Under the pieces are notes generated by a model, which saw nothing but the letters and a program-made list of their open reading frames with translations, made no database searches and had not been told where the DNA came from. 12,243 bases of DNA, from assembly GCA_016793095.1 (NCBI GenBank), contig JAEUJQ010000037.1, positions 1-12,243 of the forward strand, written 5' to 3'. The translations under genes and the position numbers were made by a program. This DNA comes from Myxococcaceae bacterium. Lineage in GTDB: Bacteria > Myxococcota > Myxococcia > Myxococcales > Myxococcaceae. This document shows positions 1-12,243 of this stretch, one piece after another. Numbering within the stretch: the stretch's first letter is position 1; each line of letters begins with the position of its first letter.

Positions 1-102
1 TGACGGTTCTCACCGGCTTTGACCCCTCTGCGGGGAAGTTTCTCACGAGCATTGACCCCCCTCGGGGTGGGGATTCTCAGGGGCATTGACCCCTCTGCAC
101 CT
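1..102 (+). repeat. IS left terminal region. It contains three direct ~33-bp repeat units, at roughly 1-35, 36-68 and 69-102, each with a 'ttctca...cattgacccc(c)tc' core. This is the multiple-IstA-binding-site architecture typical of IS21.
   Basis: The units are visible directly: 'ggttctcaccggctttgacccctctgcgggg', 'gtttctcacgagcattgacccccctcgggg', 'gattctcaggggcattgacccctctgcacc'. Confidence 0.75.
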
Positions 103-179
103 GCGCGACGCGGCTAGGCCGCCCGCACCAGCCATGTCGGCTGGGACGGGAGGCCCAGGTGGCGTTTCGCGAGGTGTCG

Positions 180-1766
180 ATGCTGGAAGTCAAAGAGGTC
201 CTCCGTCGGTGGTTGGCTGGCGAGGCGAAGAAGGCGATCGCCCGAGCCGTCGGCGTGAGCCGAAACACCGTGCGCACGTACGTGCGCCTCGGCGTGAAGT
301 GCGGGCTCGAAGGCCAGAGCACTGTCACTGACGAGGCGCTCGCCTCCGTGATGGCCGAGTTGCACGGCGCTCAGCTCGAGCCGCAGCGTGGCGAGTCGTG
401 GGCGGCTTGCGACCGCCACCGCGACTTCATCAAGGCCAAGCTGGACGAGGGGCTGCTGCTCACAAAGGCCCATCGGCTCCTGATGAGGCAGGGCGTGACC
501 GTGCCGTACGCGACGCTGCACCGCTTCGCGGTGAGCGAGCTCGGCTTCGGTGACAAGGCGCCGACCATCCCGGTGGCGGATTGTGCGCCCGGCGCTGAGG
601 TGCAGCTCGACACGGGCGTCATGACGCTGCTCGAGCCAGACATCCTCGGGCGTCGACGGCGCTTTCGCGCGTGGATCTTCACATCCGTCTACAGCCGACA
701 TCGCTTCGTGTACCCGTGCTTCGAGGAGACGACGAAGTCGGCCATCGAGGCATGCGAGGCGGCGTGGGCCTTCTTCGGTGGCGTATTCCCCGTCGTCATC
801 CCCGACAACACGAAGACCATCGTCCAGAGGGCAGACCCGCTGGACCCGCTCATCACTCCGGCCTTCCTCGAGTACGCGCAGTCGCGGAACTTCGTCGTGG
901 ACCCGACGCGCGCGAGGAAGCCGCGCGACAAGGGGCGCGTCGAGCGTGCGGTGCAGCCGACCCGTGAAGACTGCTTCCGCGGCGAGCGCCTGCGGAACCT
1001 CGACGACTGTCACCGCCGAGCGCGCACCTGGTGCCTCGACGAGTACGGCATGCGGCGTCACTCGCGGACGCAGCGGTTGCCGCGAGAGGCGTTTGAGGCC
1101 GACGAGAAGGCGAAGCTGCGGCCGGCGCCGACCGAGCTCTACGACGTGCCGCTGTACTCGGACCCGAAGGTGGGGCTCGACCAGCACGCCGAGGTGGCGA
1201 AGGCGCTCTACTCGTTGGCCTTCGAGTACCGGCGCAAGAAGGTCCACGCGCGCGCAGATCGCTCGACGGTGCGCTTCTACTTCAACCAGCAGCTCATCGA
1301 GACGCACCCACGCAAGCCTCCGGGCGGGCGCTCGACGAAGCCGGAACACTTCCCGCCGGAGAAGCTGGCCTACGCGCAGCGCGACGCGGGCTTCCTCATC
1401 CGCCAGGCCGAGGCCCAGGGGCCGAACGTCCACCGCTTCGCGAAGGTGCTGCTCGAGCAACCCCAACCATGGCTCTCGATGCGTCAGTGTTTCGGGCTCC
1501 TCGGCCTGTGTCGCCGCTTCACGCCTGCTCGCGTAGACGAGGCCTGTCAGCTCGCGCTCTCCGTCGAGATGCACGAGTACAAGCGACTGAAGCGCATGGT
1601 GCTGCTGGGCGTCACGACAGCCCCGCCGCCGAAGCCACCACCGGATTCCCACGACAACGTGGTGCCGCTCGCCCGCTTCCTGCGGCCCTCCTCTCAGTAC
1701 GCCCTCCCGCTCGCATCCCGCGAGCAGGCTGCATCACCCACCCAAGGAGAAGTCGATGACGACTGA
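180..1766 (+). CDS. istA: IS21-family transposase IstA. An N-terminal HTH (MLEVKEVLRRWLAGEAKKAIARAVGVSRNTVRTYV) is followed by a DDE integrase-like catalytic core.
   Basis: ORF 159..1766 with high-GC codon use. I place the start at ATG 180, which is preceded by GAGGTG. The ORF-track start at 159 is GTG. The N-terminal HTH is typical of IS21 IstA. The stop overlaps the istB start. Confidence 0.85.
   Translation: MLEVKEVLRRWLAGEAKKAIARAVGVSRNTVRTYVRLGVKCGLEGQSTVTDEALASVMAELHGAQLEPQRGESWAACDRHRDFIKAKLDEGLLLTKAHRLLMRQGVTVPYATLHRFAVSELGFGDKAPTIPVADCAPGAEVQLDTGVMTLLEPDILGRRRRFRAWIFTSVYSRHRFVYPCFEETTKSAIEACEAAWAFFGGVFPVVIPDNTKTIVQRADPLDPLITPAFLEYAQSRNFVVDPTRARKPRDKGRVERAVQPTREDCFRGERLRNLDDCHRRARTWCLDEYGMRRHSRTQRLPREAFEADEKAKLRPAPTELYDVPLYSDPKVGLDQHAEVAKALYSLAFEYRRKKVHARADRSTVRFYFNQQLIETHPRKPPGGRSTKPEHFPPEKLAYAQRDAGFLIRQAEAQGPNVHRFAKVLLEQPQPWLSMRQCFGLLGLCRRFTPARVDEACQLALSVEMHEYKRLKRMVLLGVTTAPPPKPPPDSHDNVVPLARFLRPSSQYALPLASREQAASPTQGEVDDD
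1744..1750 (+). promoter_or_regulatory. Shine-Dalgarno (AAGGAGA) for istB.
   Basis: Seen 5 nt upstream of ATG 1756. Confidence 0.6.
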
Positions 1767-2577
1767 AGTGGTTTCCCCCGACCTGACGACCGTGCTGCGA
1801 CGGCTCAAGCTGTCTGGCCTGCTGCACACGCTCCCCGAGCGGCTCGCGCTCGCTCGCACGCAGATGATGCCCTACCAGGACTTCCTCCTCCTCTTGCTGG
1901 CCGACGAGGTTTCCCGGCGCGAGGGGCTCTCCGCGACGCTGCGCGCGCAGCGGGCGCACCTCGACCCGGCCATGCAACTCGAGGCCTGGGACGCGTCGGC
2001 CAACGTCTCCTTCGACAAGATGCTGCTCAACGAACTGGCGTCATTGCGCTTCGTCGAGACGCACGCCCACGTCGCCATCGTCGGCCCTGTAGGCGTCGGG
2101 AAGACCTTCCTGGCTCACGCTCTCGGCCACGTCGCCTGCAGGCGCGGCTACACCGTCCACGCGGCGCGCGCCGACGCCATGCTGAAGACGCTCCGACACG
2201 CACGGCTCGACAACTCCTACGAGGCCGAGCTGCGCAAGCTGCTCGCCGTCGACCTCCTCGTCGTCGACGACTTCGGCCTCGACAAGATGGATGCCGTCGA
2301 GAGCCGTGACGCCTACGAAATCTTCACCGAGCGCCACCGCGCAGGCTCGATGATCATCACCTCGAACCGCGGTCCCGATGAGTGGCTCGCTACCTTCGCC
2401 GACCCGGTCCGAGCGCAGAGCGCCGTCGACCGCTTCACTGGCAACGCGTACGACCTCATCATCGAAGGCGAGAGCTACCGTCCACGGCAGAAGCCTTCGC
2501 GCTCAAAGGACCCCGTCCCTCAACAGCCCGTCCCGCCGAAGCGTCGGGATTCGCGTCGACGCAGGAGGGCCGCATGA
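1756..2577 (+). CDS. istB: IS21-family ATP-binding helper protein IstB (AAA+/DnaC-like).
   Basis: Walker A 'GPVGVGKTFLAHALG' and Walker B 'LLVVDDFG'. The ATG at 1756 is preceded by AAGGAGA at 1744-1750 and overlaps the istA stop (ATGA coupling). Confidence 0.9.
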   Translation: MTTEVVSPDLTTVLRRLKLSGLLHTLPERLALARTQMMPYQDFLLLLLADEVSRREGLSATLRAQRAHLDPAMQLEAWDASANVSFDKMLLNELASLRFVETHAHVAIVGPVGVGKTFLAHALGHVACRRGYTVHAARADAMLKTLRHARLDNSYEAELRKLLAVDLLVVDDFGLDKMDAVESRDAYEIFTERHRAGSMIITSNRGPDEWLATFADPVRAQSAVDRFTGNAYDLIIEGESYRPRQKPSRSKDPVPQQPVPPKRRDSRRRRRAA

Positions 2578-2770
2578 AGCACGCCGTGCCCGCGGCCCCC
2601 GCTCCGGTCGACGGCTTCGCCGCGCGCGCTCACGCACGCGCCCTCCGGGTCGACCTGGGCCGCCACGGACTTGTCCTCAAGCCCGACCCCTCATGGCTCA
2701 GGGGACAAGACGCGCCCGCTGGATCGCAGGCTCGTTTTCGGTGACTCTTACGTCGTCGCTCAGGTCAGAC

Positions 2771-2824
2771 CCCCGGGGTCAATGCCTTTGAGAAGCAGGG
2801 GGTCAAAGGTGGTGAGAGCCGGCA
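2771..2824 (-). repeat. IS right terminal inverted repeat region. It holds two units inverted relative to the left-end units.
   Basis: 'cccccggggtcaatgcctttgagaag' is the reverse complement of 'cttctcaaaggcattgaccccggggg', matching left unit 2. 'cagggggtcaaaggtggtgagagccggca' is the reverse complement of left unit 1. Confidence 0.75.
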
Positions 2825-3019
2825 GTGGAGCGCGACATGGAAATGTCCGTTCCGCGGAGGCTGCATTGCCTGCGCCCCGCTGCAGGTCGGAAGACCGGGG
2901 CGTTCCCGCCGGCGCGACTGCAGTTTGTGCGTGGGCCTCCGTCGAGCGCACGAACTGCGCAAGGCCGCCACGCCTTCTCTCGGGCGACTGCTGGCGCACG
3001 AAGTGCAACCCTCCTCGCT

Positions 3020-3715
3020 ATGCGCGCGCTCCGTGTCCTCCCCATCCTCTTCCTGCTCGGCTGTCCCTCGGAGTCAGTGGACGGGCTGATCAAGGAACAG
3101 CGGGCCGCCGTCGAGGCGACCTTCGACGCGATTCGACGGATTCAGCTGCCCCAGACGACCCACGAGGCGCCCGCGGTGCCGCTCGTGCTCCAGACGTCCG
3201 CGAAGGACGGTGTGAACGCGGCCTTCATCTACAGCGAAGACCTCGCGAAGCCCGGCGGCGCGAAGGACGTTCCGCTGAGGACGATGGACTCGTTGACCCT
3301 GGTTCAGTGCGGCTCGCTGCTCGACACCGGGAAGCTCTCCGCGGGAGGTCCGCAGATGCGGCTGACGCAGACCCCGCTCACGCCCACCGTCGCCAGGGCC
3401 TACCTCTCGGCGTGCGCGCGGCTGCGCTACGCGCTCGTCATTCAGGGCACCGCGTTCAAGGCGCCGCAGGTCACCTCCGAGCAGAAGTTCGAGCCGGGGT
3501 TCTTCCGCGCGGACGTGGTGGCGATCGATCTCACCAGCGGGAAGTCGGTGGGAGCGTTCCAGATCGACGCGGCGAACAAGCCCGACGTCAGCGTCATCGC
3601 CGGCGAGGACCGGGGGCAACGGCTGCTGCGCGATCTCGAGGGCTCCATCTACAGCGCGCTGCGTGACGGGCTTCGCACGGCGTTTCCGGGCTCGGTGCCT
3701 CCGCCGGCGTTCTGA
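3020..3715 (+). CDS. Hypothetical lipoprotein of 231 aa. It has a signal peptide with an L-L-G-C lipobox (MRALRVLPILFLLGC).
   Basis: ORF 2825..3715. The internal ATG at 3020 gives a classic lipoprotein signal. Amino-acid composition is protein-like (K, F, I, Y, Q present), whereas the overlapping 2671..3666 frame is R/A/G-rich. I recognise no functional domain. Confidence 0.65.
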   Translation: MRALRVLPILFLLGCPSESVDGLIKEQRAAVEATFDAIRRIQLPQTTHEAPAVPLVLQTSAKDGVNAAFIYSEDLAKPGGAKDVPLRTMDSLTLVQCGSLLDTGKLSAGGPQMRLTQTPLTPTVARAYLSACARLRYALVIQGTAFKAPQVTSEQKFEPGFFRADVVAIDLTSGKSVGAFQIDAANKPDVSVIAGEDRGQRLLRDLEGSIYSALRDGLRTAFPGSVPPPAF

Positions 3716-3828
3716 GGTGCGCTCGCGACGCTCCGGCTGGCGCGAGTCGCCGAGCTGCCTCATCGCCACCTTCGCGGGCGTCGTGATGTCAGCGCTCGCG
3801 GGTGGGTTCGGCCCTCACTGACGGTGGC

Positions 3829-5118
3829 TCAGAGCGAGTCGCGCAGGCGCAGCGCGTCGGGCGCCGCCGAGGTGTCGCCGAACTTCTTCAGCACGACGTC
3901 GGCGACGGCGCGGGCCTGGTCCTTCTTCCCCGTCGCCAGCAGCGCGCGGGCCTTGCGCACCAGCACGCTCGCCTCGAGGTCGCGGGACTCGGCGCCCCGC
4001 GCGAGGTACTTGTCGAGCAGCTTGATGGCCCTCGCCGGCTGCGACAGCTCGTCCTGCAGCACCGACGCCGCCATCAGCGTCGCCCGGTTCGCCTCGACGC
4101 CCTTGCCTGCGGAGGCCTTGAGGTAGCTCTCGACGGCGCCCTTCTTGTCTCCCGTGCGCCGCTGACAGTCAGCCAGCGTCATCCGCGCCGGCACGTCGTC
4201 GGGCGCCTGACCGAGCGACTTCTTCACCTCGACCATCACCAGCCCACATTCGCCTCGCGACGCGCGGGTACGCCACTCGGCCAGCTTCGCCGCCGGAGCC
4301 CCCTTCTTCTTCGGGCTCGCCGGCTCGTCCTTCACGGCGGGCTCGGGCTCCTCGACCGGCTGCACCTCGACGACCGGCTCGGGCTGTGGCGGCACGGGGG
4401 GAACGACCGCGGGCTTCTCGTTCAGCTCGTCGAACACGCCCGCGCTCTCGACCTTGCTGAGCGCGCCGACGCCGCCCTTCACCGTCAGCAGCTGGTTCGC
4501 CGTCACCCGCGAGGTCTGCTGGCCGTACGTCACCTCGACAGTGCCGCGCTGCACCTCGACCGACAGCTCGTCCTCGAGGGCGCGCACGCGGAAGATGGTG
4601 CCCACCACGTGCACGCGGCCGAGCGGGGTCTCGACGTCGAAGCTGCGCTTGCCGCGTGATGGATCGACGTGCGCCGCCACCGAGCCCTTCGACAACACCA
4701 GCCGCGTCGCCTTGTTGCTGGCGGCGGCGATCTCCACCCGCGAGTCCGGTCCCACGCCGACCGTGTCGTCACCGAGCGAGAAGATGGTGCGCCCATCGGC
4801 CGCCGTCTCGGTCACCGAGCCCGTCGTCGTCACCGCCGTCGCGACCACCGGCTTCGCCGTCCACGCCACCTCGGGCTCGCCGCGCAGCAGGACGAAGGCC
4901 AGCACGCCCGCCACCACCACCGCGAGCGCCCCGGCCGGCGCCAACACACGCAGCCACGACGGCGCCTGGGCCTCGGCCTCTTCGGCGCGCTGGAGCAGTC
5001 GCGCCACGTCGTTCGGTCCCGGCGGCTGGGCGAAGGGCGCGCGCGCGAGCTTCAGCTCACTCGAGAACTTGTCCCACGCCGGGTCGGTGGCGGGCGTCTG
5101 GGGAGCGTCGGCGCTCAT
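3829..5118 (-). CDS. Transmembrane anti-sigma factor. A short cytoplasmic N-terminus is followed by one TM helix (LAPAGALAVVVAGVLAFVLL), a periplasmic FecR domain, a proline-rich linker and a C-terminal TPR-like helical domain.
   Basis: The FecR-like segment is 'RLVLSKGSVAAHVDPSRGKRSFDVETPLGRVHVVGTIFRVRALEDELSVEVQRGTVEV'. The linker is 'PAVVPPVPPQPEPVVEVQPVEEPEPAVKDEP'. Its ATG at 5118 overlaps the sigma-factor stop (ATGA) on the minus strand. Confidence 0.75.
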   Translation of the reverse strand: MSADAPQTPATDPAWDKFSSELKLARAPFAQPPGPNDVARLLQRAEEAEAQAPSWLRVLAPAGALAVVVAGVLAFVLLRGEPEVAWTAKPVVATAVTTTGSVTETAADGRTIFSLGDDTVGVGPDSRVEIAAASNKATRLVLSKGSVAAHVDPSRGKRSFDVETPLGRVHVVGTIFRVRALEDELSVEVQRGTVEVTYGQQTSRVTANQLLTVKGGVGALSKVESAGVFDELNEKPAVVPPVPPQPEPVVEVQPVEEPEPAVKDEPASPKKKGAPAAKLAEWRTRASRGECGLVMVEVKKSLGQAPDDVPARMTLADCQRRTGDKKGAVESYLKASAGKGVEANRATLMAASVLQDELSQPARAIKLLDKYLARGAESRDLEASVLVRKARALLATGKKDQARAVADVVLKKFGDTSAAPDALRLRDSL

Positions 5119-5693
5119 TCGGCACCTCCACTCTCGCCAAGCTCTTTGATCTTCTGCCGCGCCCGGTGGAGCCGCGTGAAGACGGTGTTGGGGCTCACGC
5201 CGAGCGACGCGGCGATCTCCTCGGCCGTCCACCCCTCGACGACGTTCAGGACCACCACCGTGCGCCACTCCTCGGGCAGCTTCGCGAGCAACCGCTCGGC
5301 GTCGCGACCCGCATCGACGCGGAGCTGCGGCGTGGTGGTTCGCTCTTCCTTCGAGACGTGGCGGTCGATCAGCTTGCCGCGAACCCACTCCACCACGCCC
5401 GACTTCTTCCCCTTCTTCGCTGCGATGCCGACCAGGAACGACTTCACCGACACGCCGGGGCGCAGCCGGTCCGCCACCTTCGCGAACGTGAGGAACACCT
5501 CCTGACAGAGGTCGTCGAGCTCGCTGTCTCGTACCTGATGTCGAAGGACGTTCATCACCACTCCCCTGTGACGGGTGTAGAGAGGACCGAGCGCTTTCAG
5601 GTCGCCAGCCACCAGCCGCCTGACACACGCGTCGTCGTCTTCACCCGCCGTCAATTCATCTGGAATCCCGTGACGGCTCAAAGTCCTTCCCAT
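5115..5693 (-). CDS. ECF (sigma-70 family group IV) RNA polymerase sigma factor.
   Basis: Region 2: 'DDLCQEVFLTFAKVADRLRP'. Region 4.2 HTH: 'WTAEEIAASLGVSPNTVFTRLHRARQKIKE'. The start is ATG at 5693. The gene is translationally coupled to the downstream anti-sigma. Confidence 0.85.
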   Translation of the reverse strand: MGRTLSRHGIPDELTAGEDDDACVRRLVAGDLKALGPLYTRHRGVVMNVLRHQVRDSELDDLCQEVFLTFAKVADRLRPGVSVKSFLVGIAAKKGKKSGVVEWVRGKLIDRHVSKEERTTTPQLRVDAGRDAERLLAKLPEEWRTVVVLNVVEGWTAEEIAASLGVSPNTVFTRLHRARQKIKELGESGGAE

Positions 5694-6763
5694 GCGAGAC
5701 CGATGCCGGCGTGCAGCGAGAGCGCAGGCTGCCGCCAGACGACATGATCGCCAGGCAGTTCAACGAGTTGGGCGCGGCCGAGGCGGGCGAGGGCCTGGAG
5801 GCGGAACACGATGGAAAAGGCCTGAGTACCTGCACTTACATCGACGCCGAGGAGTCCAGCCCCCGTGAGTGTGGTGATCTGTCCGGGCACCGACTGGCGA
5901 GAGCTGGTCCAGGTGAGTTCCGGGCCGAGGCCGACGCGTGGCCAGAAGGCGAAGTCGCCCAGTGTGTAGCTTCGGGTCCCCACTGCGAGGACGGGAAGCG
6001 ACACCGAAGAGACGGCGGCAGACTCGAGCGGCACAGCGCGGTGGCCGGTGGCAGACACGTCGATGCCAAAGCCGAGGCGGTGGTTCAGCTTGAAGAGCGC
6101 GCTGAGGGCGCCGCCATAGCGGGTCGCTCCCCCGAGGTGGTCGATCACGCCCGAGTCGACGAGCCCGAAGGCCATCAGCCGCAAGCGCTTCGGGTCCGGT
6201 GGGCGGGCAGGCGCGGGTGGCGCGATCGGCGTGTCGGCGATGGCCAGCGGCGCGACGTCGGGGGCGTACGACATGGTCGCGCGCGTCTGCTTCACCACGG
6301 CTCGCAGCTGGGGCGGAACGTTGGCGGGCGCCTCGTAGAGAAAGGCCGTGCCCAGCAGCTCGCGCATCATCAACGCCAGCGCGCTCTCGTTGCGGCTCTT
6401 GCGGTCGAACTCGAGCGTGCGCACCAGGGTGCGGCCAGTGCCCTGGGCGACGAGGTGCAGCATGAGCTGTCCCGGCAACGGCTCCGAGAGCCACACCACG
6501 GCCGCAGCGTCGTTGGCCTTCGCGACGGGCAGGACCGCGGCGAGCTGATCGGCCAGCGGCTTTCGCGGGAAGTCGGGCACCGCGATGGGCGTGTTGAGCA
6601 CGATGAACGAGTCGAGGAGCAGGGTGAGCTCTTCATGCAGGCGCGCCTGCGTCTTCACGAACGCCGGCGGCCCGTCGGTGCGGATCATGACGATGAGCGG
6701 CGGGGGTGGCCCGATGGACACCCTGGGCGCGGCCAGCACCAGCGTGAGCAGAAGCGCGGTCAT
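5678..6763 (-). CDS. Exported hypothetical protein of 361 aa. It has a signal peptide (MTALLLTLVLAAP) and a C-terminal ~170 aa of alternating hydrophobic residues that suggest an outer-membrane beta-barrel. It is the first gene of the ECF sigma operon.
   Basis: ORF 5678..6853, which begins with GTG. The internal ATG at 6763 gives a clean signal peptide. The 3' end overlaps the sigma start by 16 nt. I recognise no named domain, and the beta-barrel call rests on the residue pattern only. Confidence 0.55.
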   Translation of the reverse strand: MTALLLTLVLAAPRVSIGPPPPLIVMIRTDGPPAFVKTQARLHEELTLLLDSFIVLNTPIAVPDFPRKPLADQLAAVLPVAKANDAAAVVWLSEPLPGQLMLHLVAQGTGRTLVRTLEFDRKSRNESALALMMRELLGTAFLYEAPANVPPQLRAVVKQTRATMSYAPDVAPLAIADTPIAPPAPARPPDPKRLRLMAFGLVDSGVIDHLGGATRYGGALSALFKLNHRLGFGIDVSATGHRAVPLESAAVSSVSLPVLAVGTRSYTLGDFAFWPRVGLGPELTWTSSRQSVPGQITTLTGAGLLGVDVSAGTQAFSIVFRLQALARLGRAQLVELPGDHVVWRQPALSLHAGIGLAWEGL

Positions 6764-6870
6764 CGACAGCGCTGCAGTGTGCCTGTCACGTCGAGCTTTC
6801 TCACGCTCAAAGCGCGAGGGCAGGCGCTGCTGGTTCCCTGGCGTTCGCGACACCGCTATGCAACCGGCGC

Positions 6871-8109
6871 ATGTCGCCCTCGCCGCCCGCCGGCCTGCTG
6901 ACGCTGCAGCTCAGGCCAGGCCACCCTGACCTGCTCGACCTGCCCTGGCACCTGCCCCTGAGCGCGTGGGAGGGCGCGTGCCCCCGCTGGGTGGAGATTC
7001 CGCGTGGGCTCTCGCGGCACGAGGTCCTCTTCGTCAGCTACGGCGAGGTCGTCTACGCGCTCAAGGAGCTGCCGGGGTCGGTCGCCGAGCGTGAGTACGC
7101 CGCGCTGCGCGAGCTCGAGGCGCGGGCGCTGCCGGCCGTCACGCCCGTTGGCCTCGCCCACACGCGGCCCGAGGGCACGGGCGAAGAACGTGGGGTGCTG
7201 GTGACGCAGTACCTCCAGGGGTCGCTCCCCTACCGGACGCTCTTCATGCAGCCGGGTCTCGAGCGCTACCGGGCGCGCCTCGTCGACGCCCTCGCGGTGC
7301 TGCTGGTGCGCCTGCACCTGGGCGGCTGCTTCTGGGGCGACTGCTCGCTGTCCAACAGCCTGTTCCGCCGCGACGCAGGCGAGCTGCAGGCCTACCTGGT
7401 GGACGCCGAGACGTCCGAGCTGCACCCGACGCTGTCGGACGGGCAGCGGCGCTTCGACCTGGACCTGATGGAGGAGAACGTGGCGGGCGGGCTGGTGGAC
7501 CTGATCGCCGCGGGAGCCGCCAGCGCTGCCGCGCTCGACTGGCGCGAGACGAGCGCCAGCGTGCGTCGCCGCTATGAGCAGCTCTGGGCGGAGATCACCC
7601 GCGAGGAGCTGGTCGGAGCCGGTGACTCGTTCCTCGTGCAGGAGCGCATTCGCAAGCTGAACGCCCTGGGCTTCAGCGTCGGGGAGGTCGAGCTGGTCGC
7701 CACCGGTGACGGCGCCCACCTGCGCATGCGCACCATCGTGACCGACCGCAACCACCACCGGCACCTGCTGCACAACCTCACCGGCCTGGTCGCCGAGGAG
7801 CACCAGGCGCAGCTCCTGCTCAACGACGTGCGCGAGTGGAAGGTGGCCGCCACCCGCGAGCTGAACCGCAGCCTCCCGCTGTCCGTCGCCGCGCACCGCT
7901 GGCTCAACGAGCGCTTCCTCAGCGTGACGCAGTCGATGCAGGGCGCCGGCGCGCCGGAGGACCTCTGCGAGCTCTTCTGCCAGGTGCTCGAGCACAAGTG
8001 GCTCATGTCCGAGCGCGAGAAAGAGGACGTCGGCTTCAAGCGCGCCGTGGCGGACTACCGCGCGCTGCGCGGGCTCGCGGAGCCGGTCGAGCCCGCGCCA
8101 TCTGAGTGA
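6871..8109 (+). CDS. Atypical protein-kinase-like fold protein (412 aa). A Kdo-kinase-like / RIO-like architecture is suggested. I recall this as DUF4032 but cannot verify it.
   Basis: ATG at 6871. Kinase-like landmarks: 'VVYALKEL' (beta3 Lys-like), 'EYAALRELE' (alphaC Glu-like), 'LHLGGCFWGDCSLSNSLF' (HxD...N catalytic-loop-like, residues ~149-162) and 'AYLVDAETSE' (DFG-like D178). Confidence 0.6.
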   Translation: MSPSPPAGLLTLQLRPGHPDLLDLPWHLPLSAWEGACPRWVEIPRGLSRHEVLFVSYGEVVYALKELPGSVAEREYAALRELEARALPAVTPVGLAHTRPEGTGEERGVLVTQYLQGSLPYRTLFMQPGLERYRARLVDALAVLLVRLHLGGCFWGDCSLSNSLFRRDAGELQAYLVDAETSELHPTLSDGQRRFDLDLMEENVAGGLVDLIAAGAASAAALDWRETSASVRRRYEQLWAEITREELVGAGDSFLVQERIRKLNALGFSVGEVELVATGDGAHLRMRTIVTDRNHHRHLLHNLTGLVAEEHQAQLLLNDVREWKVAATRELNRSLPLSVAAHRWLNERFLSVTQSMQGAGAPEDLCELFCQVLEHKWLMSEREKEDVGFKRAVADYRALRGLAEPVEPAPSE

Positions 8110-9488
8110 CGACCCGAGGCCACGCGCTCCCGACGTCGGCGGCGCATGGCACCGAAGGCCAGCGCCAGTCCGGGCACCGCCCCCGCGTCCGAGCCGCACC
8201 CGCACCCGAGGCGCTGGATGGTGACTCCGGGGCCACTGGGGAACGGCGACGAGCTGGGCGGCACCTCGAGCACTGACGACTTGCCCGGCAGCCCGGCGCC
8301 CGCGCCGTAGTCGCCCGCCGGCACCCGGCCCGCGAGACCGCCGAGCACGGACATGGGGCACTCGGCCACGCGACCTGCACGCAGCGACACGTGGCCGCCA
8401 CCACCTCCACCGCCGGGCCCGTTGTCGGTGGCCGCACCACCAGCGCCGCCATTCGCGAACAGGGCACACCGCGCGGCCTCGACGACCTCGACGACGACGG
8501 AGCCGCCCGCGCCCGCCCCACCACCTCCGCCAAACCGGGAGTCGGTCGCCGGCCCTTCCTGGCCATCAGCCACCACGAGCCCCGCGCCTTCGAGGGTCCG
8601 CGCTCGAAGGAAGACGCCGCCGCCGCCGCGCCCACCACCGCGCCCTCGCCCGAAGGTGCCGTTGGTCGCCCCGCCGCCGCCCCCGAAGAGCAGCCCCGCC
8701 CACGTGAGCGCCGCGGCGCCGAACCCACCGACGTCGCGCTTCCCGTCACCGCTGAACCCGCCCTGCCCGCCTTCGCCGAGTCCGGCGCCGCCGCCGCCGC
8801 CCGAGTACGCGCACGCCCCGCCGCCGCCGCCCGAGTCGTTGTTGCGCCGGCCGGTGAAGGTGGTGCCGAACCCTCCGACGAGCGCGCCCTCGCCCCGCTC
8901 CGCGCCTCGGGGACCGGCCTCGTCCTCGCCCAGGCAGCCGAGCTCGGCCTGGCCAATCTCGCGGGGGGCGCCGCCGCGGAACCCGGCGCCGTTCGCCGAC
9001 AACGTTCCGTCGTTGCGCACCGTCCCGTTCGCCAGCAACGCGAGCACGCCGCCGCTGGCGCCGTTCCAGGCTGGCGCGACCAGCGACGTCCCCGAGTGGA
9101 CGATGACGTCGGTGAACTGGGGCACCAGCACCGCCTGACTCTCTCCCTGTCGCCACGGCCGGTTGAGCGGTGTCGCGAGCTCGAGCTTCGGGCCGACGAC
9201 GCGCTCGACGAAGTGCAGCGAGTACTCGCCGACACGGTAGCGCTCCCCGTCCGAGCGCCACTGGCTCTGCAGCAACAGCACCACCGCGCCGCTCGAGAAC
9301 GGCGTGGAGTCTGCGACGAGAACGAACGGGTCTCCGGCGGCTGCGTCGGCGGCCAGGGCAGTGGCCGCGTTGATGACGCGACTCAGCGTCGTCACCTCGA
9401 GCACGCCGTCACGCCCATCGCCGAGCTGCTGCACCTGACCCAGCACTGGCCCCGACAGGCAGAGCAACGCGAAGAGGACGCCACGCAC
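8055..9488 (-). CDS. Glycine-rich secreted or cell-surface protein with a C-terminal MYXO-CTERM-like sorting signal (GCGCG...GLALAFGAMRRRRR). The N-terminal domain of ~200 aa is of unknown function. The central region carries runs of GGGGG.
   Basis: ORF 8055..9611, which begins with TTG inside the neighbouring gene's SD. I prefer GTG at 9488, which gives the signal peptide 'RGVLFALLCLSGPVLGQ'. The C-terminus has two Cys, a hydrophobic stretch and five Arg, matching the Myxococcales-type C-terminal sorting domain. The start assignment is uncertain. Confidence 0.6.
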   Translation of the reverse strand: MRGVLFALLCLSGPVLGQVQQLGDGRDGVLEVTTLSRVINAATALAADAAAGDPFVLVADSTPFSSGAVVLLLQSQWRSDGERYRVGEYSLHFVERVVGPKLELATPLNRPWRQGESQAVLVPQFTDVIVHSGTSLVAPAWNGASGGVLALLANGTVRNDGTLSANGAGFRGGAPREIGQAELGCLGEDEAGPRGAERGEGALVGGFGTTFTGRRNNDSGGGGGACAYSGGGGGAGLGEGGQGGFSGDGKRDVGGFGAAALTWAGLLFGGGGGATNGTFGRGRGGGRGGGGVFLRARTLEGAGLVVADGQEGPATDSRFGGGGGAGAGGSVVVEVVEAARCALFANGGAGGAATDNGPGGGGGGGHVSLRAGRVAECPMSVLGGLAGRVPAGDYGAGAGLPGKSSVLEVPPSSSPFPSGPGVTIQRLGCGCGSDAGAVPGLALAFGAMRRRRRERVASGRHSDGAGSTGSASPRSAR

Positions 9489-9609
9489 GCCGCGCAGTGT
9501 GCCTGAAAACGCGGAGTTCGACGGCGAAACCGACGGCCCCGCACACCCGCCGAGACTTTTTCCTATTCTGCGGGTTGCGGTGTCTGTCCACTCAGCCGCC
9601 GCTCGTCGC

Positions 9610-9615
9610 AAGGAG
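9610..9615 (+). promoter_or_regulatory. Strong Shine-Dalgarno (AAGGAG), 9 nt upstream of GTG 9625.
   Basis: Seen in sequence: 'gcaAGGAGaacccccgcGTG'. Confidence 0.6.
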
Positions 9616-9624
9616 AACCCCCGC

Positions 9625-11028
9625 GTGCACCGAAGCCTCCTCGTCTGGAGCGTTCTGCTCTCTGCTGCTGCGTTGGCGAAACCACCGGCAGGGGGCGTGT
9701 TCTGCGCGAAGTACCCGACCTCGCCTGACTGCGTCGGCCGGCAACCCGCGTGCGCGTACTGTCACGTCGCGCCCCCGCAGCGGAACGTCTTCGGGGCGTC
9801 GCTCGAGGCCGCCCTCGCGCCCGGCGCCCCGCGGCCCTTGTCCGACGCCGACTTCGCGATGGCGCTCCCGGCGGCGCTGATGGCCGTCGAGTCACGGGAC
9901 GCTGACGGCGACGGCGTCACCAACCTGCTCGAGATTCAGCGGGGTACGCAGCCGGCCGACGCCGCGAGCAAGCCGGTGGAGCGCGCCTGCGAGGGCAGTG
10001 AGAACCCACAGTTCTCGGTCTGCCGATACGACCTGCGCTACGTCTACAAGAAGCTGCTGCTCGACTTCTGCGGCGCGTCGCCGTCGTACGCCCAGGTGAA
10101 GCGCTTCCTCGAGTGGCCCACCGATGATGACCGCCGCGCCTTCCTCGTGACCGAGCTCGACCGCTGCACGCGCACCGACTTCTGGCGGGGGAAGAACGGC
10201 CAGCTCTGGAAGGTGGCGCACCCGAAGATCCGTCCGGTCGGCTCGCTGAAGCAGGGCGAGGACCCGGGCGGAATCCCTCTCGCCGACTACTACGACGACT
10301 ACGCGCTCTTCGTGTGGACGCAGACCGAGGACCGCGACGCGCGCGAGGTGCTGACCGCCGACTACTTCGTTCGCCGCACCGCCAACCCGACGACGTACAC
10401 GAAGGTGGCGAACCTGCCCTCGCAGAACGTCGACCTGGCCCATCGCGCCGGCAACATGACGACCGCGTGGGCGCTGACGTACTTCGTGATGTTCACCGCG
10501 CTCCCGCGCAACGCCGCGTCGCAGGCCTACCGCGCGTACCTGGGCCTCGACATCGCGAAGCAGGAGGGCCTCTACAGCGTGCCCAACGAGCCGCAGGACT
10601 ACGACGCCAAGGGCGTGCAGGCGCCGGCCTGCGCGGCGTGCCACGCGACGCTCGACCCGCTCAGCTACCCGTTCCGCAACTACAACGGCATCTCGTCGGC
10701 GATGTTCGCGAACCGCTACATCCCCAACCGGCTCGAGCTGGGCTTCAGCACGCTGGCGCCGCGCATCACCCAGACGCCCGAGCGCGGCGTCATCTTCGGG
10801 CAGCCGGTGAACGATCTCCGCGAGTGGGCCCGCGTCGGCGCCGACAGCGACGCGTTCGCCATCGCCACCACCACCGACTACTGGAAGCTGCTCATCGGCC
10901 ACCCGCCGCGGCCGGAGGAGAACGCCGAGTTCGTCGCCACCTGGCGCCGCTTCAAGGGCGAGCACCAGTACCGGGTGCAGCGACTGCTCCACGACCTCGT
11001 GAAGACGGAGGCCTACGGTGCGCCCTGA
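9625..11028 (+). CDS. Exported c-type-cytochrome-like protein (467 aa). It has two CXXCH haem-attachment motifs (CAYCH and CAACH) and a canonical EF-hand Ca-binding loop (DADGDGVTNLLE).
   Basis: In-frame GTG at 9625 with an AAGGAG SD. Signal peptide 'VHRSLLVWSVLLSAAALA'. CXXCH motifs at 9751-9765 and 10630-10644. EF-hand loop at 9898-9933. Cys is otherwise rare in this high-GC proteome, so two CXXCH motifs are unlikely by chance. Confidence 0.65.
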   Translation: MHRSLLVWSVLLSAAALAKPPAGGVFCAKYPTSPDCVGRQPACAYCHVAPPQRNVFGASLEAALAPGAPRPLSDADFAMALPAALMAVESRDADGDGVTNLLEIQRGTQPADAASKPVERACEGSENPQFSVCRYDLRYVYKKLLLDFCGASPSYAQVKRFLEWPTDDDRRAFLVTELDRCTRTDFWRGKNGQLWKVAHPKIRPVGSLKQGEDPGGIPLADYYDDYALFVWTQTEDRDAREVLTADYFVRRTANPTTYTKVANLPSQNVDLAHRAGNMTTAWALTYFVMFTALPRNAASQAYRAYLGLDIAKQEGLYSVPNEPQDYDAKGVQAPACAACHATLDPLSYPFRNYNGISSAMFANRYIPNRLELGFSTLAPRITQTPERGVIFGQPVNDLREWARVGADSDAFAIATTTDYWKLLIGHPPRPEENAEFVATWRRFKGEHQYRVQRLLHDLVKTEAYGAP

Positions 11029-11671
11029 GAGACTCCTCGCGTTGAGCTCGCTGGCGGTGGCGTTGTCCGGCTGCCCCGGCCGCATCATCGAGCCGCCGGT
11101 GCCGCCCATCGTGGTGGACACGCCGGACGCCGGCAGCCTCGCGCGCTCGGCCCGCGGCAACCTGCGCTTCAAGGGCCCCGAGCGCCTGCAGGCGGACTTC
11201 GCGGCCGCGCTCGAGCTTCAGCCGTCCGACGTCTGCACCGAGCTGGGCCAGTACCAGTGCGCCACCTTCGTGCACAACGTGGCGCTGGGCGGCGTGGACC
11301 CGTACGGCCCGGGCCTCTACGAGTCCTCCGGCATCACCGCGGTCACCACGCCCCTCGTCATCGACCGGCTGGCCTGGTCGGCCTGCACGAAGCGGGTGGA
11401 CCTCGACCTCCTCGCGCCGGGCCTGGCGCAGGTGTTCCGCGGGGTGCCGATGTCGAACGGGAAGCTCACGAACCCCGAAGGCCAGGAGGTCTCGAACCTC
11501 ATCGTGGACCTCACCCGGCGGGCGTTGACGCGAGACCCCTACGCGAACGAGGTGACGCGCTACGTGAAGCTCGCGAAGGACCTCGAGGCCACGTCGGCGC
11601 AGCCGGCCCGCGCGTGGATGCAGTCGGTGTGCTTCGCCATCCTCTCGTCGGCCGAGTCGGTCTTCTACTGA
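11018..11671 (+). CDS. Hypothetical lipoprotein of 217 aa with a lipobox 'ALSGC'. It is translationally coupled to the upstream cytochrome-like gene.
   Basis: The GTG at 11018 overlaps the upstream stop (gtgcgccctga), with GGAG 7 nt upstream. Signal: 'MRPERLLALSSLAVALSGC'. Confidence 0.6.
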   Translation: MRPERLLALSSLAVALSGCPGRIIEPPVPPIVVDTPDAGSLARSARGNLRFKGPERLQADFAAALELQPSDVCTELGQYQCATFVHNVALGGVDPYGPGLYESSGITAVTTPLVIDRLAWSACTKRVDLDLLAPGLAQVFRGVPMSNGKLTNPEGQEVSNLIVDLTRRALTRDPYANEVTRYVKLAKDLEATSAQPARAWMQSVCFAILSSAESVFY

Positions 11672-11682
11672 AAGGGCACCCC

Positions 11683-12243
11683 ATGTCGCTCAAGCGCAAT
11701 GGCCGGCTGTCGCGCCGGGAGATGCTGAAGGCGCTGTCCCTCGCGGCGGCGGGCTCGACCACGTTGTCACCGTTCCTCGCCGGTTGTCGGCAGGCCCAGC
11801 AGACGCCGGAGGACGTCGAGCGTGGGCTGCGTCGCGACGCGCTCGACGGCAAGCCGAGGTTCCTCATCGTCGTCGCGGCCGCGGGCGGCGCCAGCATCGT
11901 CGACAGCTTCCTCGCCGTGCGGGCGGGCGAGGCGGGCCTGAACGCCGCGCGCCTCAACACGTTCCCCGACGCGCAGGTGCAGGCAGTGGCGAACAGCCCC
12001 TTCCGCGCGGTGCGGGTGAGCAACCCGCGGCTCGGCAGCATCCCCGTGCCGGTGAACACCGACCAGCTCGCCTTCGTGAACAAGTACAAGGACGACATGC
12101 TGGTGGCCACGTCGGTCGGCACCAGCGTGAACCACGTCATCGCGCAGAAGCGGTCCATCACCGGGAACGCCGCGTGGAAGGGCCGCACGCTGCAGGAGTG
12201 CGTCGCGCTGCAGTGGGGCCAGGGCTTCGCGCTGCCGAACGTG
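11683..12243 (+). CDS. Tat-signal (twin-arginine, 'SRREMLKALSLAAAGS') exported protein, 5' partial and running off the window end. It is possibly a DUF1501- or DUF1552-type partner protein.
   Basis: ATG at 11683, 12 nt after the previous stop. The frame stays open for 187 codons to the window end. I translated it by hand, because it is absent from the ORF track, which lists only closed ORFs. The segment 'GKPRFLIVVAAAGGASIVDSFL' resembles the N-terminal core of Tat-exported sulfatase-like DUF proteins. Confidence 0.55.
   Translation, partial: MSLKRNGRLSRREMLKALSLAAAGSTTLSPFLAGCRQAQQTPEDVERGLRRDALDGKPRFLIVVAAAGGASIVDSFLAVRAGEAGLNAARLNTFPDAQVQAVANSPFRAVRVSNPRLGSIPVPVNTDQLAFVNKYKDDMLVATSVGTSVNHVIAQKRSITGNAAWKGRTLQECVALQWGQGFALPNV

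Follow-up and report, generated by a model that had tools for sequence, protein, structure and literature searches.

A stretch of 12,243 nucleotides from a Myxococcaceae bacterium (assembly GCA_016793095.1, contig JAEUJQ010000037.1, positions 1 to 12,243), analysed at its full length and referred to here as the window, ends with three genes on the forward strand, which lie at positions 9625-11028 (gene 1), 11018-11671 (gene 2) and 11683-12243 (gene 3). This trio forms one translationally coupled operon that is conserved in myxobacteria. Judged from their sequences, the three proteins together appear to be a very divergent relative of the modules in which PSCyt/PSD proteins are found with DUF1501 or DUF1552 proteins, and their domain mix appears to be a mosaic, with a group III-like partner (PSCyt3, PSD2, PSD5) placed beside a DUF1501-like enzyme. 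What is new here is best described as a split, mosaic form of a known but uncharacterised module. With respect to function, we consider it reasonably probable that the products make up a membrane-tethered periplasmic enzyme system, in which gene 3 would provide the catalytic component and genes 1 and 2 a split accessory subunit that binds haem and calcium.

Operon structure and conservation

Open reading frames and their translations place the three genes on the same strand with almost no gaps, as an earlier note on this DNA had stated, and the lengths of homologues agree with these coordinates. Gene 1 encodes 467 residues from a GTG start to a TGA stop at 11026-11028, and is preceded by AAGGAG (9610-9615), which reads as a Shine-Dalgarno-like sequence 9 nt 5' of the start codon. 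Gene 2 encodes 217 residues from a GTG that overlaps the preceding stop, as described earlier, the overlap between the two genes being 11 nt; its own stop codon occupies 11669-11671. The spacer between gene 2 and the ATG start of gene 3 is also 11 nt, rather than the 12 nt given in that note. A GGAGG ribosome-binding site is located 6 nt 5' of the gene 2 start at 11018 (site and start codon together covering 11007-11020), inside the sequence that encodes the invariant end of gene 1, TEAYGAP and the stop codon. As the end of gene 1 also carries the ribosome-binding site and start of gene 2, this stretch is under dual coding constraint. Gene 3 is cut by the end of the window after 187 of approximately 513 codons.

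The gene boundaries are confirmed by the matching lengths of homologues. Full-length gene 1 homologues have 460-475 residues, and P0001, which is 95% identical to the window protein, has 467; P0211, the full-length counterpart of gene 3, has 513 residues and is 97% identical to the fragment; and the metagenomic contig L003, which is 90% identical to the window over 2825-12243, encodes a trio of 467, 217 and 513 residues. The orthologue of gene 1 in Myxococcus xanthus (L001 10001-11404) is annotated with 388 residues in RefSeq (for instance WP_237078370.1) versus 467 in GenBank (QDE68653.1), and the shorter call drops both the signal peptide and the first CXXCH motif. Scans for promoters and terminators gave no informative signal at the GC content of the window (approximately 70%).

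A scan of one genome per species found 112 relatives of gene 1, for which 80 loci were retrieved. Nearly all of these belong to the Myxococcaceae or Archangiaceae, with a few metagenome-assembled genomes under other labels. According to tblastn searches, the order 1-2-3 is present in every retrieved locus with enough downstream DNA, loci cut by a contig end excepted; the co-occurrence of the neighbouring genes in other genomes, on which the earlier note had made its proposal depend, therefore holds in every such Myxococcota locus. Of the 80 loci that were read for this start, 79 have the GTG of gene 2 and the 11-nt overlap; the exception (L032) has an ATG start and a 14-nt overlap. A metagenomic relative with only 45% GC has the same gene arrangement and keeps the 11-nt overlap (L089 2914-2924). 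The genes that follow the trio lie on the opposite strand, both on contig L003 and in M. xanthus. It is the overlap and short spacer, the constant gene order, the conserved GTG overlap and the opposite orientation of the downstream genes that lead us to regard the trio as an operon. Clustering of flanking open reading frames from approximately 85 loci revealed no other gene family in more than 12 of them, so the three-gene module is autonomous; a tblastn search of plasmids with gene 3 gave zero matches.

Identities across loci, as given by tblastn, are 54-81% for gene 1, 41-73% for gene 2 and 55-83% for gene 3, gene 2 being the fastest evolving of the three. Several copies can occur together, as in Archangium minus, with three retrieved loci and, in the list of gene 3 homologues, four paralogues, and in Cystobacter fuscus, with two retrieved loci. 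The fast evolution of gene 2, together with a helical cap in gene 3 that is the least confidently modelled part of that protein, would fit substrate-specific diversification among the paralogues. In Archangium gephyra PVMSAZ (L026 8074-9628) gene 3 is split into two overlapping open reading frames, and this break reflects either pseudogenisation by a frameshift or an error in sequencing.

Relationship to PSCyt/PSD and DUF1501/DUF1552 modules

Homologues were compared in three alignments, comprising 46 gene 1 proteins that are 60-95% identical (A1), 49 gene 3 proteins (A2) and the gene 2 proteins (A3). Those of gene 3 were collected with the full-length M. xanthus orthologue; the 187-residue fragment from the window retrieved fragments only. 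Searching 1.84 billion cluster representatives with a profile extended the gene 1 family to 147 matches at E <= 1e-30 and 1043 at E <= 0.001, and the domain readings of distant relatives given below rest on the best 150 of these 1043 matches. Pfam gathering cut-offs are 27 bits for PSCyt3, 29.8 for PSCyt2, 25.8 for PSD2, 34.2 for PSD5, 27 for DUF1501 and 21.3 for Cytochrom_C; members of our families were counted as matching at E <= 0.01 for PSCyt3 and DUF1501 and at E <= 0.1 for PSD5.

The gene 1 protein matches PSCyt3/DUF1588 (PF07627) at residues 332-356 (10618-10692) with 22.7 bits (E 1.3e-4), and 45 of the 46 family members match this model too, the best with E 3.3e-6. A helical stretch at residues 139-177 (10039-10155) resembles PSCyt2/DUF1549, with 16.3 bits (E 0.0098) for the window protein and E 1.5e-4 for the M. 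xanthus orthologue; this family is matched by 32 of the 46 members, in all cases below the cut-off. In gene 2, a putative helical hairpin at residues 160-213 (11495-11656) resembles PSD5/DUF1595 (PF07637) with 15.6 bits (E 0.02), as do 13 of 39 members of its family (best E 3.4e-5). DUF1501 (PF07394) is the sole family matched by gene 3 proteins (29 of 49), and scores 17.6 bits with P0211 and 18.3 with the M. xanthus orthologue. Among the families that the earlier note had named, DUF1501 and PSCyt2 thus left traces; PSCyt1, PSD1/DUF1553, DUF1552 (PF07586) and DUF1800 (PF08811), as well as PSD3 and PSD4/DUF1592, gave zero matches, both in the window (E <= 1) and in M. xanthus (E <= 10). NCBIfam offers no model for these three proteins, and in public records they all go under the name "hypothetical", with a few sources offering "DUF1501", "Cytochrome c domain-containing protein" or "Lipoprotein", and one source labels one gene 3 member as DUF1552, despite the lack of a DUF1552 match. 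As far as the profile comparisons indicate, the sub-threshold Pfam matches are specific, and they recur across the families.

A connection between the first two genes is provided by distant relatives in which they are joined. The gene 2 product consists of a signal peptide ending in the lipobox LSGC, with Cys19 (11063-11074), a Pro-rich tether and a domain of approximately 175 residues with four invariant Cys residues (A3); across loci the tether is Pro- or Gly-rich, and a lipobox-like Cys is present at all examined loci except L081. Among the matches listed, five proteins of 616-675 residues (P0315, P0317, P0329, P0347 and P0353) are fusions of a gene 1-like protein with a gene 2-like C-terminal domain. 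BLASTP places residues 44-217 of gene 2 on the C-terminal part of P0353 with 36% identity (E 4e-25), and matches the gene 2 domain likewise to the end of P0315 (E 5e-18), the alignment with the fusions spanning all four invariant Cys residues and the terminal SxExVFY. P0353 also matches positions 136-466 of the gene 1 profile (E 1.3e-74), and its residues 435-503, which follow PSCyt3, exceed the PSD2/DUF1585 cut-off with 38.8 bits. PSD2 also follows PSCyt3, below the cut-off, in P0315, P0317, P0329 and P0347; it is undetected in the window protein, whose C-terminal helical region (approximately residues 400-467; 10822-11025) may be PSD2-like by transitivity via P0353. At locus L086 the fusion gene encoding P0353 is followed, 20 nt later, by a homologue of gene 3 (39% identity, E 2e-98).

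Because a gene 2-like domain is fused to gene 1-like proteins, genes 1 and 2 encode one functional unit, and comparison with the fusions identifies gene 2 as a split-off C-terminal domain of a PSCyt-like protein that is now predicted to be lipid-anchored. The lipoprotein, which had been regarded earlier as an "extra" of the module, is hence the counterpart of a C-terminal domain of the gene 1 protein, and an unrelated add-on is ruled out by the same fusions. The fused P0347 lineage has lost the N-terminal CXXCH/EF-hand domain and possesses a lipobox of its own. This lineage suggests that membrane anchoring is important, and that the role of the first haem domain is an accessory one. A gene encoding a B12-binding radical-SAM protein of 714 residues (L086 3860-6004; L087 646-2790) shares 4 nt with the beginning of the fusion gene; this neighbour is seen in the fused lineage alone, and its product could be a maturase. 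Next after the gene 3 homologue of the L086/L087 lineage comes an eCIS_core gene.

In the modules described previously, PSCyt2 pairs with PSD1 and adjoins DUF1501, whereas PSCyt3 pairs with PSD4, often together with PSD2, PSD3 and PSD5, and adjoins DUF1552 (He et al. 2017, PMC5615132, Text S1); PSD4 has been reported to pair exclusively with PSCyt3 (PMC5615132). The trio is similar to group II modules (PSCyt1-PSCyt2-PSD1 with DUF1501; PMC3542564, PMC5615132) in that an exported CXXCH protein is encoded beside a twin-arginine protein of DUF1501 type, in its weak PSCyt2-like stretch and in the occurrence of several copies per genome. It differs in the absence of any match to PSCyt1 or PSD1, in PSCyt2 and DUF1501 scores that are below the cut-off, in the size of the partner (467 plus 217 residues, compared with approximately 1000, and without carbohydrate-binding modules), in an enzyme that is apparently also a lipoprotein, and in its host, a member of the Myxococcota rather than of the PVC (Planctomycetes-Verrucomicrobia-Chlamydiae) phyla. 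With group III modules (PSD3-PSD5-PSD4-PSCyt3-PSD2 with DUF1552) it shares the traces of PSCyt3 followed by PSD2, the PSD5-like part and the motif CxxCHxxxDP. In contrast to group III, PSD4 and PSD3 are undetected, the neighbouring enzyme is DUF1501-like and not DUF1552, and the PSD5-like part comes after PSD2 (as the C-terminus of the fusions or as a separate gene) instead of before PSCyt3.

Pairs of DUF1800 and DUF1501 genes are found in Proteobacteria and Actinobacteria (PMC5122149). The trio differs from these in having no PF08811 match, and the structural resemblance is non-significant. DUF1800 proteins are not known to have CXXCH motifs. The statement in the earlier note that no biochemical function is established for such modules is in agreement with published accounts (PMC3542564; PMC5615132, Text S1), and our own literature search found no function for PSCyt, PSD, DUF1501, DUF1552 or DUF1800 proteins or for the Myxococcus orthologues.

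Predicted activities and alternative explanations

The gene 1 protein begins with a Sec-type signal peptide (residues 1-18; 9625-9678), MHRSLLVWSVLLSAAALA followed by KPP, for which cleavage between ALA and K is likely; A18, K19 and P20 show little or no variation in A1. It contains two CXXCH motifs, CAYCH at residues 43-47 (9751-9765) in an N-terminal cytochrome c-like domain and CAACH at residues 336-340 (10630-10644) within the PSCyt3-like stretch, and between them the EF-hand/TSP3-type loop DADGDGVTNLLE at residues 92-103 (9898-9933). The earlier note had described two such motifs some 290 residues apart and a canonical EF-hand loop; all are found (the spacing is 293 residues) and all are invariant, in that C43, C46, H47, C336, C339 and H340, the loop residues D92, D94, G95, D96, N100 and E103, and the sequence ATLDPL after the second motif are unchanged in the 46 homologues. 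The loop follows the EF-hand pattern at positions 1, 3, 5, 6, 9 and 12, reads as D-x-D-x-D-G-x-x-N-x-x-E, and is flanked by helices 74-88 and 100-106 in the AlphaFold2 (AF2) model, giving a helix-loop-helix; TSP3_bac is matched by 5 of the 46 family members. Binding of Ca2+ is predicted on this basis. CXXCH in a Sec-exported protein is the signature of a c-type cytochrome, from which we infer that haem is probably attached. Six further Cys residues are invariant in gene 1 and likely form disulphides, and together with the four in gene 2 they make a pattern typical of an oxidising compartment.

These features persist in distant relatives. Among the matches listed, the second CXXCH is kept by all ten relatives from clusters at <=50% identity, and the first CXXCH with the EF-hand loop by nine of the ten, P0347 being without the N-terminal domain. 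This domain repeatedly matches the first-haem region of diheme_GEGP (NCBIfam, "GEGP motif-containing diheme protein") with E about 1e-7; in the window protein the match covers residues 41-122 with E 2e-7, far below the cut-off. The relative P0330 scores 20.8 bits with Cytochrom_C. Searches of the PDB with sequence profiles of A1 and A2 found no homologue, merely two chance alignments of CXXCH, and identity with MauG/CCP peroxidases was rejected, the CXXCH motif alone being matched (E 0.03). Five relatives (P0292, P0296, P0297, P0289 and P0330; L089-L091) have an insertion of 60-150 residues, partly Gly-rich, immediately after the second CXXCH. At L091, the gene for P0330 lacks both gene 2 and gene 3 on its downstream side and is followed by an oppositely oriented gene.

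Gene 3 (11683-12243 in its 5' part) carries the twin-arginine translocation (Tat) signal reported in the earlier note, SRREMLK at residues 10-16, followed by a lipobox, LAGC at residues 32-35, that had been overlooked (11710-11787 for the two motifs). Conservation among the 49 homologues is at least 90% for the arginines R11 and R12 and complete for L32, C35 and R36. Twin arginines are also found in distant homologues (RRRHFLK in L086, NRRQAMQ in L090), so that Tat motifs are present in all three lineages; the gene 3 of the relative with 45% GC is without the lipobox Cys. The Tat motif and the lipobox with its invariant Cys35 mark gene 3 as a probable Tat lipoprotein. Since both gene 2 and gene 3 have the lipobox signature, two of the three products are predicted to be lipid-anchored, and the proposal of three different export signals does not stand.

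The AF2 model of gene 3 matches exclusively hydrolases and transferases of the alkaline phosphatase superfamily, and predicts the alpha/beta core fold of that superfamily. After the first beta-strand lies GGASxxD (G68-D74; 11884-11904), a candidate metal-site loop, of which G68, G69, S71 and D74 are invariant in A2; the L086 homologue reads GGASVHE. A candidate nucleophile site, TSVNH (T147-H151; 12121-12135), follows strand 139-145 of the model at a strand-to-helix junction and is invariant in A2. Further invariant blocks are FDFSHNDHR (365-373, before a long helix), AT(D/E)FGRT (416-422, after strand 411-417) and GHDLNNG (435-441). The invariant polar residues therefore comprise S71, D74, T147, S148, H151, D366, H369, H372, H436 and the acidic residue at 418, and S148, H151, D366, H369, H372, H436 and the acidic residue at 418 are kept in the 39%-identical L086 homologue. 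NPP enzymes of this superfamily display a T-F-P-N-H nucleophile loop together with the motifs D-x-x-x-H, S-D-H-G and H-G-x-D-N, and we take TSVNH to be the presumed equivalent of T-F-P-N-H. By this analogy the layout fits a metallo-esterase with a Ser or Thr nucleophile. In comparison with NPP-type enzymes such as that of Xanthomonas (PDB 7mw8), gene 3 has 9-15% sequence identity, a helical insertion of approximately 120 residues (220-335) and a replaced first-strand Asp, and it would be exported by Tat, lipid-anchored and provided with a dedicated partner protein. Identity as a formylglycine sulfatase was rejected, the C/S-x-P-x-R motif being absent.

In the scheme that we favour, gene 3 would be a metallo-enzyme that acquires its fold and its metals in the cytoplasm, before export by Tat and subsequent lipid anchoring, with S148 in TSVNH as the probable Ser/Thr nucleophile; it may cleave or transfer phospho-esters, or less likely sulfo-esters, in a substrate derived from the envelope or from prey. 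Gene 1 would be a soluble Sec-exported protein with two likely haem c sites and one Ca2+ loop, which the gene 2 lipoprotein would tether to the membrane. The subunit formed by genes 1 and 2 most likely binds or presents the substrate, or else regulates or activates the enzyme, and the three products would assemble in the periplasm at a membrane face, where the two membrane anchors suggest the site of action to be. Gene structure, conservation, the fusions, the gene 3 fold and the family relationships are what the analysis establishes; haem attachment, the physical complex, the chemistry and the substrate all belong to the inferred part of this scheme. A functional precedent is offered by Pseudomonas aeruginosa, in which the Tat-exported phospholipase C PlcH forms a complex with PlcR, an EF-hand accessory protein from the same operon. 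The likeness consists of a Tat-exported phospho-esterase with an alkaline phosphatase-like core and an operon partner with EF-hand Ca2+ motifs; it is a functional analogy only, in that there is no sequence relationship, PlcR is without CXXCH, and PlcHR is secreted and not lipid-anchored.

Several observations weigh against this scheme and the family assignment beneath it. No window protein reaches a Pfam gathering score, although the matches recur across the families and the kinship with PSCyt/PSD-DUF1501/DUF1552 pairs suggested in the earlier note is in essence upheld, and the PSCyt3 match spans just 25 residues around CXXCH. The two AF2 models are of moderate quality, with pLDDT (predicted local distance difference test) values of 72.8 for gene 1 and 69.5 for gene 3, and both the region of the second CXXCH (residues 317-357) and the proposed nucleophile loop of gene 3 are modelled with low confidence. 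In the N-terminal domain no invariant Met or His is evident in A1 as a sixth ligand for the first haem. The canonical first-strand Asp of the superfamily appears to be Ala in gene 3 (AAAGG), and the metal site may consequently be atypical. For no family member did we find data on expression, phenotype or biochemistry.

The two CXXCH motifs could alternatively belong to an electron-transfer module, in which gene 3 would be a Tat-exported redox enzyme with a cofactor, gene 1 a c-type cytochrome dedicated to it as donor or acceptor, and gene 2 the anchor. The invariance of both motifs in a Sec-exported protein, the weak resemblance of the N-terminal domain to cytochrome c and dihaem families and the use of Tat by cofactor-containing redox enzymes are all consistent with such a role, and electron transfer has been hypothesised for the related PSCyt/DUF1501 clusters (Kamneva et al. 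2012, PMC3542564). Against this, the gene 3 model resembles hydrolases and transferases of the alkaline phosphatase superfamily only, a fold that argues against a classical redox enzyme and does not support the periplasmic redox role envisaged in the earlier note; no redox-cofactor family is matched, and the P0347 lineage dispenses with the first CXXCH domain. Tat, moreover, also exports the metal-loaded phosphatases PhoD and PhoX, as well as PlcH. We regard electron transfer as unlikely. It seems similarly improbable that the CXXCH motifs have a structural role, as metal or disulphide sites in a non-redox binding or scaffold protein, with gene 3 possibly being a non-catalytic binding protein of alkaline phosphatase fold like PbgA/YejM: when its His is invariant and the protein is exported by Sec, CXXCH is the classical signature of haem c, and gene 3 is rich in invariant Asp, His and Ser residues located where an active site would be expected.

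Very unlikely, in our estimate, is a third possibility, that gene 1 (with gene 2) is a haem enzyme resembling MauG, which would modify gene 3 post-translationally in the periplasm without being a permanent subunit; the Ser or Thr of TSVNH, for instance, could be oxidised to an aldehyde or to some other cofactor. The fact that partner and enzyme are strictly paired 1:1, the invariance of the proposed nucleophile loop and the radical-SAM gene beside the fusion gene, which recalls radical-SAM sulfatase maturases, speak for it, but the similarity to MauG/CCP does not extend beyond CXXCH, the sulfatase signature is missing, the radical-SAM neighbour is confined to one lineage and the presence of a lipoprotein tether on each partner points to stable co-localisation. 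MauG and anSME (the anaerobic sulfatase-maturing enzyme) are precedents for enzyme maturation of this kind.

PSCyt/PSD proteins and the DUF1501/DUF1552 proteins encoded beside them rank with the largest families for which no function is known, and dozens of pairs may be present in the genome of a single Planctomycete or Verrucomicrobium. The compact split module described here lies below the detection thresholds of current family models, and occurs in the Myxococcaceae, the Archangiaceae and beyond. Provided that its haem sites are real, the coupling of an esterase fold to a partner with two haems would be unusual as an enzyme design. The M. xanthus orthologue provides a tractable entry into this uncharacterised protein-family space. 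More speculatively, and in our judgement quite unlikely, the trio might represent an unrecognised third architecture of the very large PSCyt/PSD-DUF1501/DUF1552 superfamily, in which an enzyme with the alkaline phosphatase fold is obligatorily coupled to a partner that binds haem and Ca2+. Ester cleavage would then depend on, or be linked with, the redox or ligand state of the haem, or else the partner would mature the enzyme oxidatively. If so, it would provide a first experimental handle on the hundreds of such pairs in Planctomycetes and Verrucomicrobia, since the operon is single, compact, independent of its neighbours and present in the genetically tractable M. xanthus.

Neighbouring features of the window

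The window begins with a complete IS21-family element (1-2824) that contains istA (159-1766) and istB (1756-2577) and is bounded by terminal inverted repeats at 1-26 and 2799-2824, with extra internal copies of the repeat near both ends. The alignment with contig L003 starts at 2825, which marks the element as an insertion or an assembly break point; it is unrelated to the trio. Further downstream, on the reverse strand (3829-5693), Pfam identifies an ECF (extracytoplasmic function) sigma factor gene (5115-5693) followed by a FecR/TPR anti-sigma-like gene, and this region is syntenic with L003. The sigma/anti-sigma pair is absent beside the M. xanthus orthologues, and so has no apparent link to the trio. 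Divergent from gene 1 is a gene on the reverse strand (8055-9611, with a likely start near 9533) that encodes a Gly-rich secreted protein without a Pfam match. Its C-terminus, ending in LGCGCGSDAGAVPGLALAFGAMRRRRRE, resembles a MYXO-CTERM sorting tail, and the 3' end of the gene overlaps a convergent DUF4032/Kdo-kinase-like gene (6871-8109) by approximately 55 nt.

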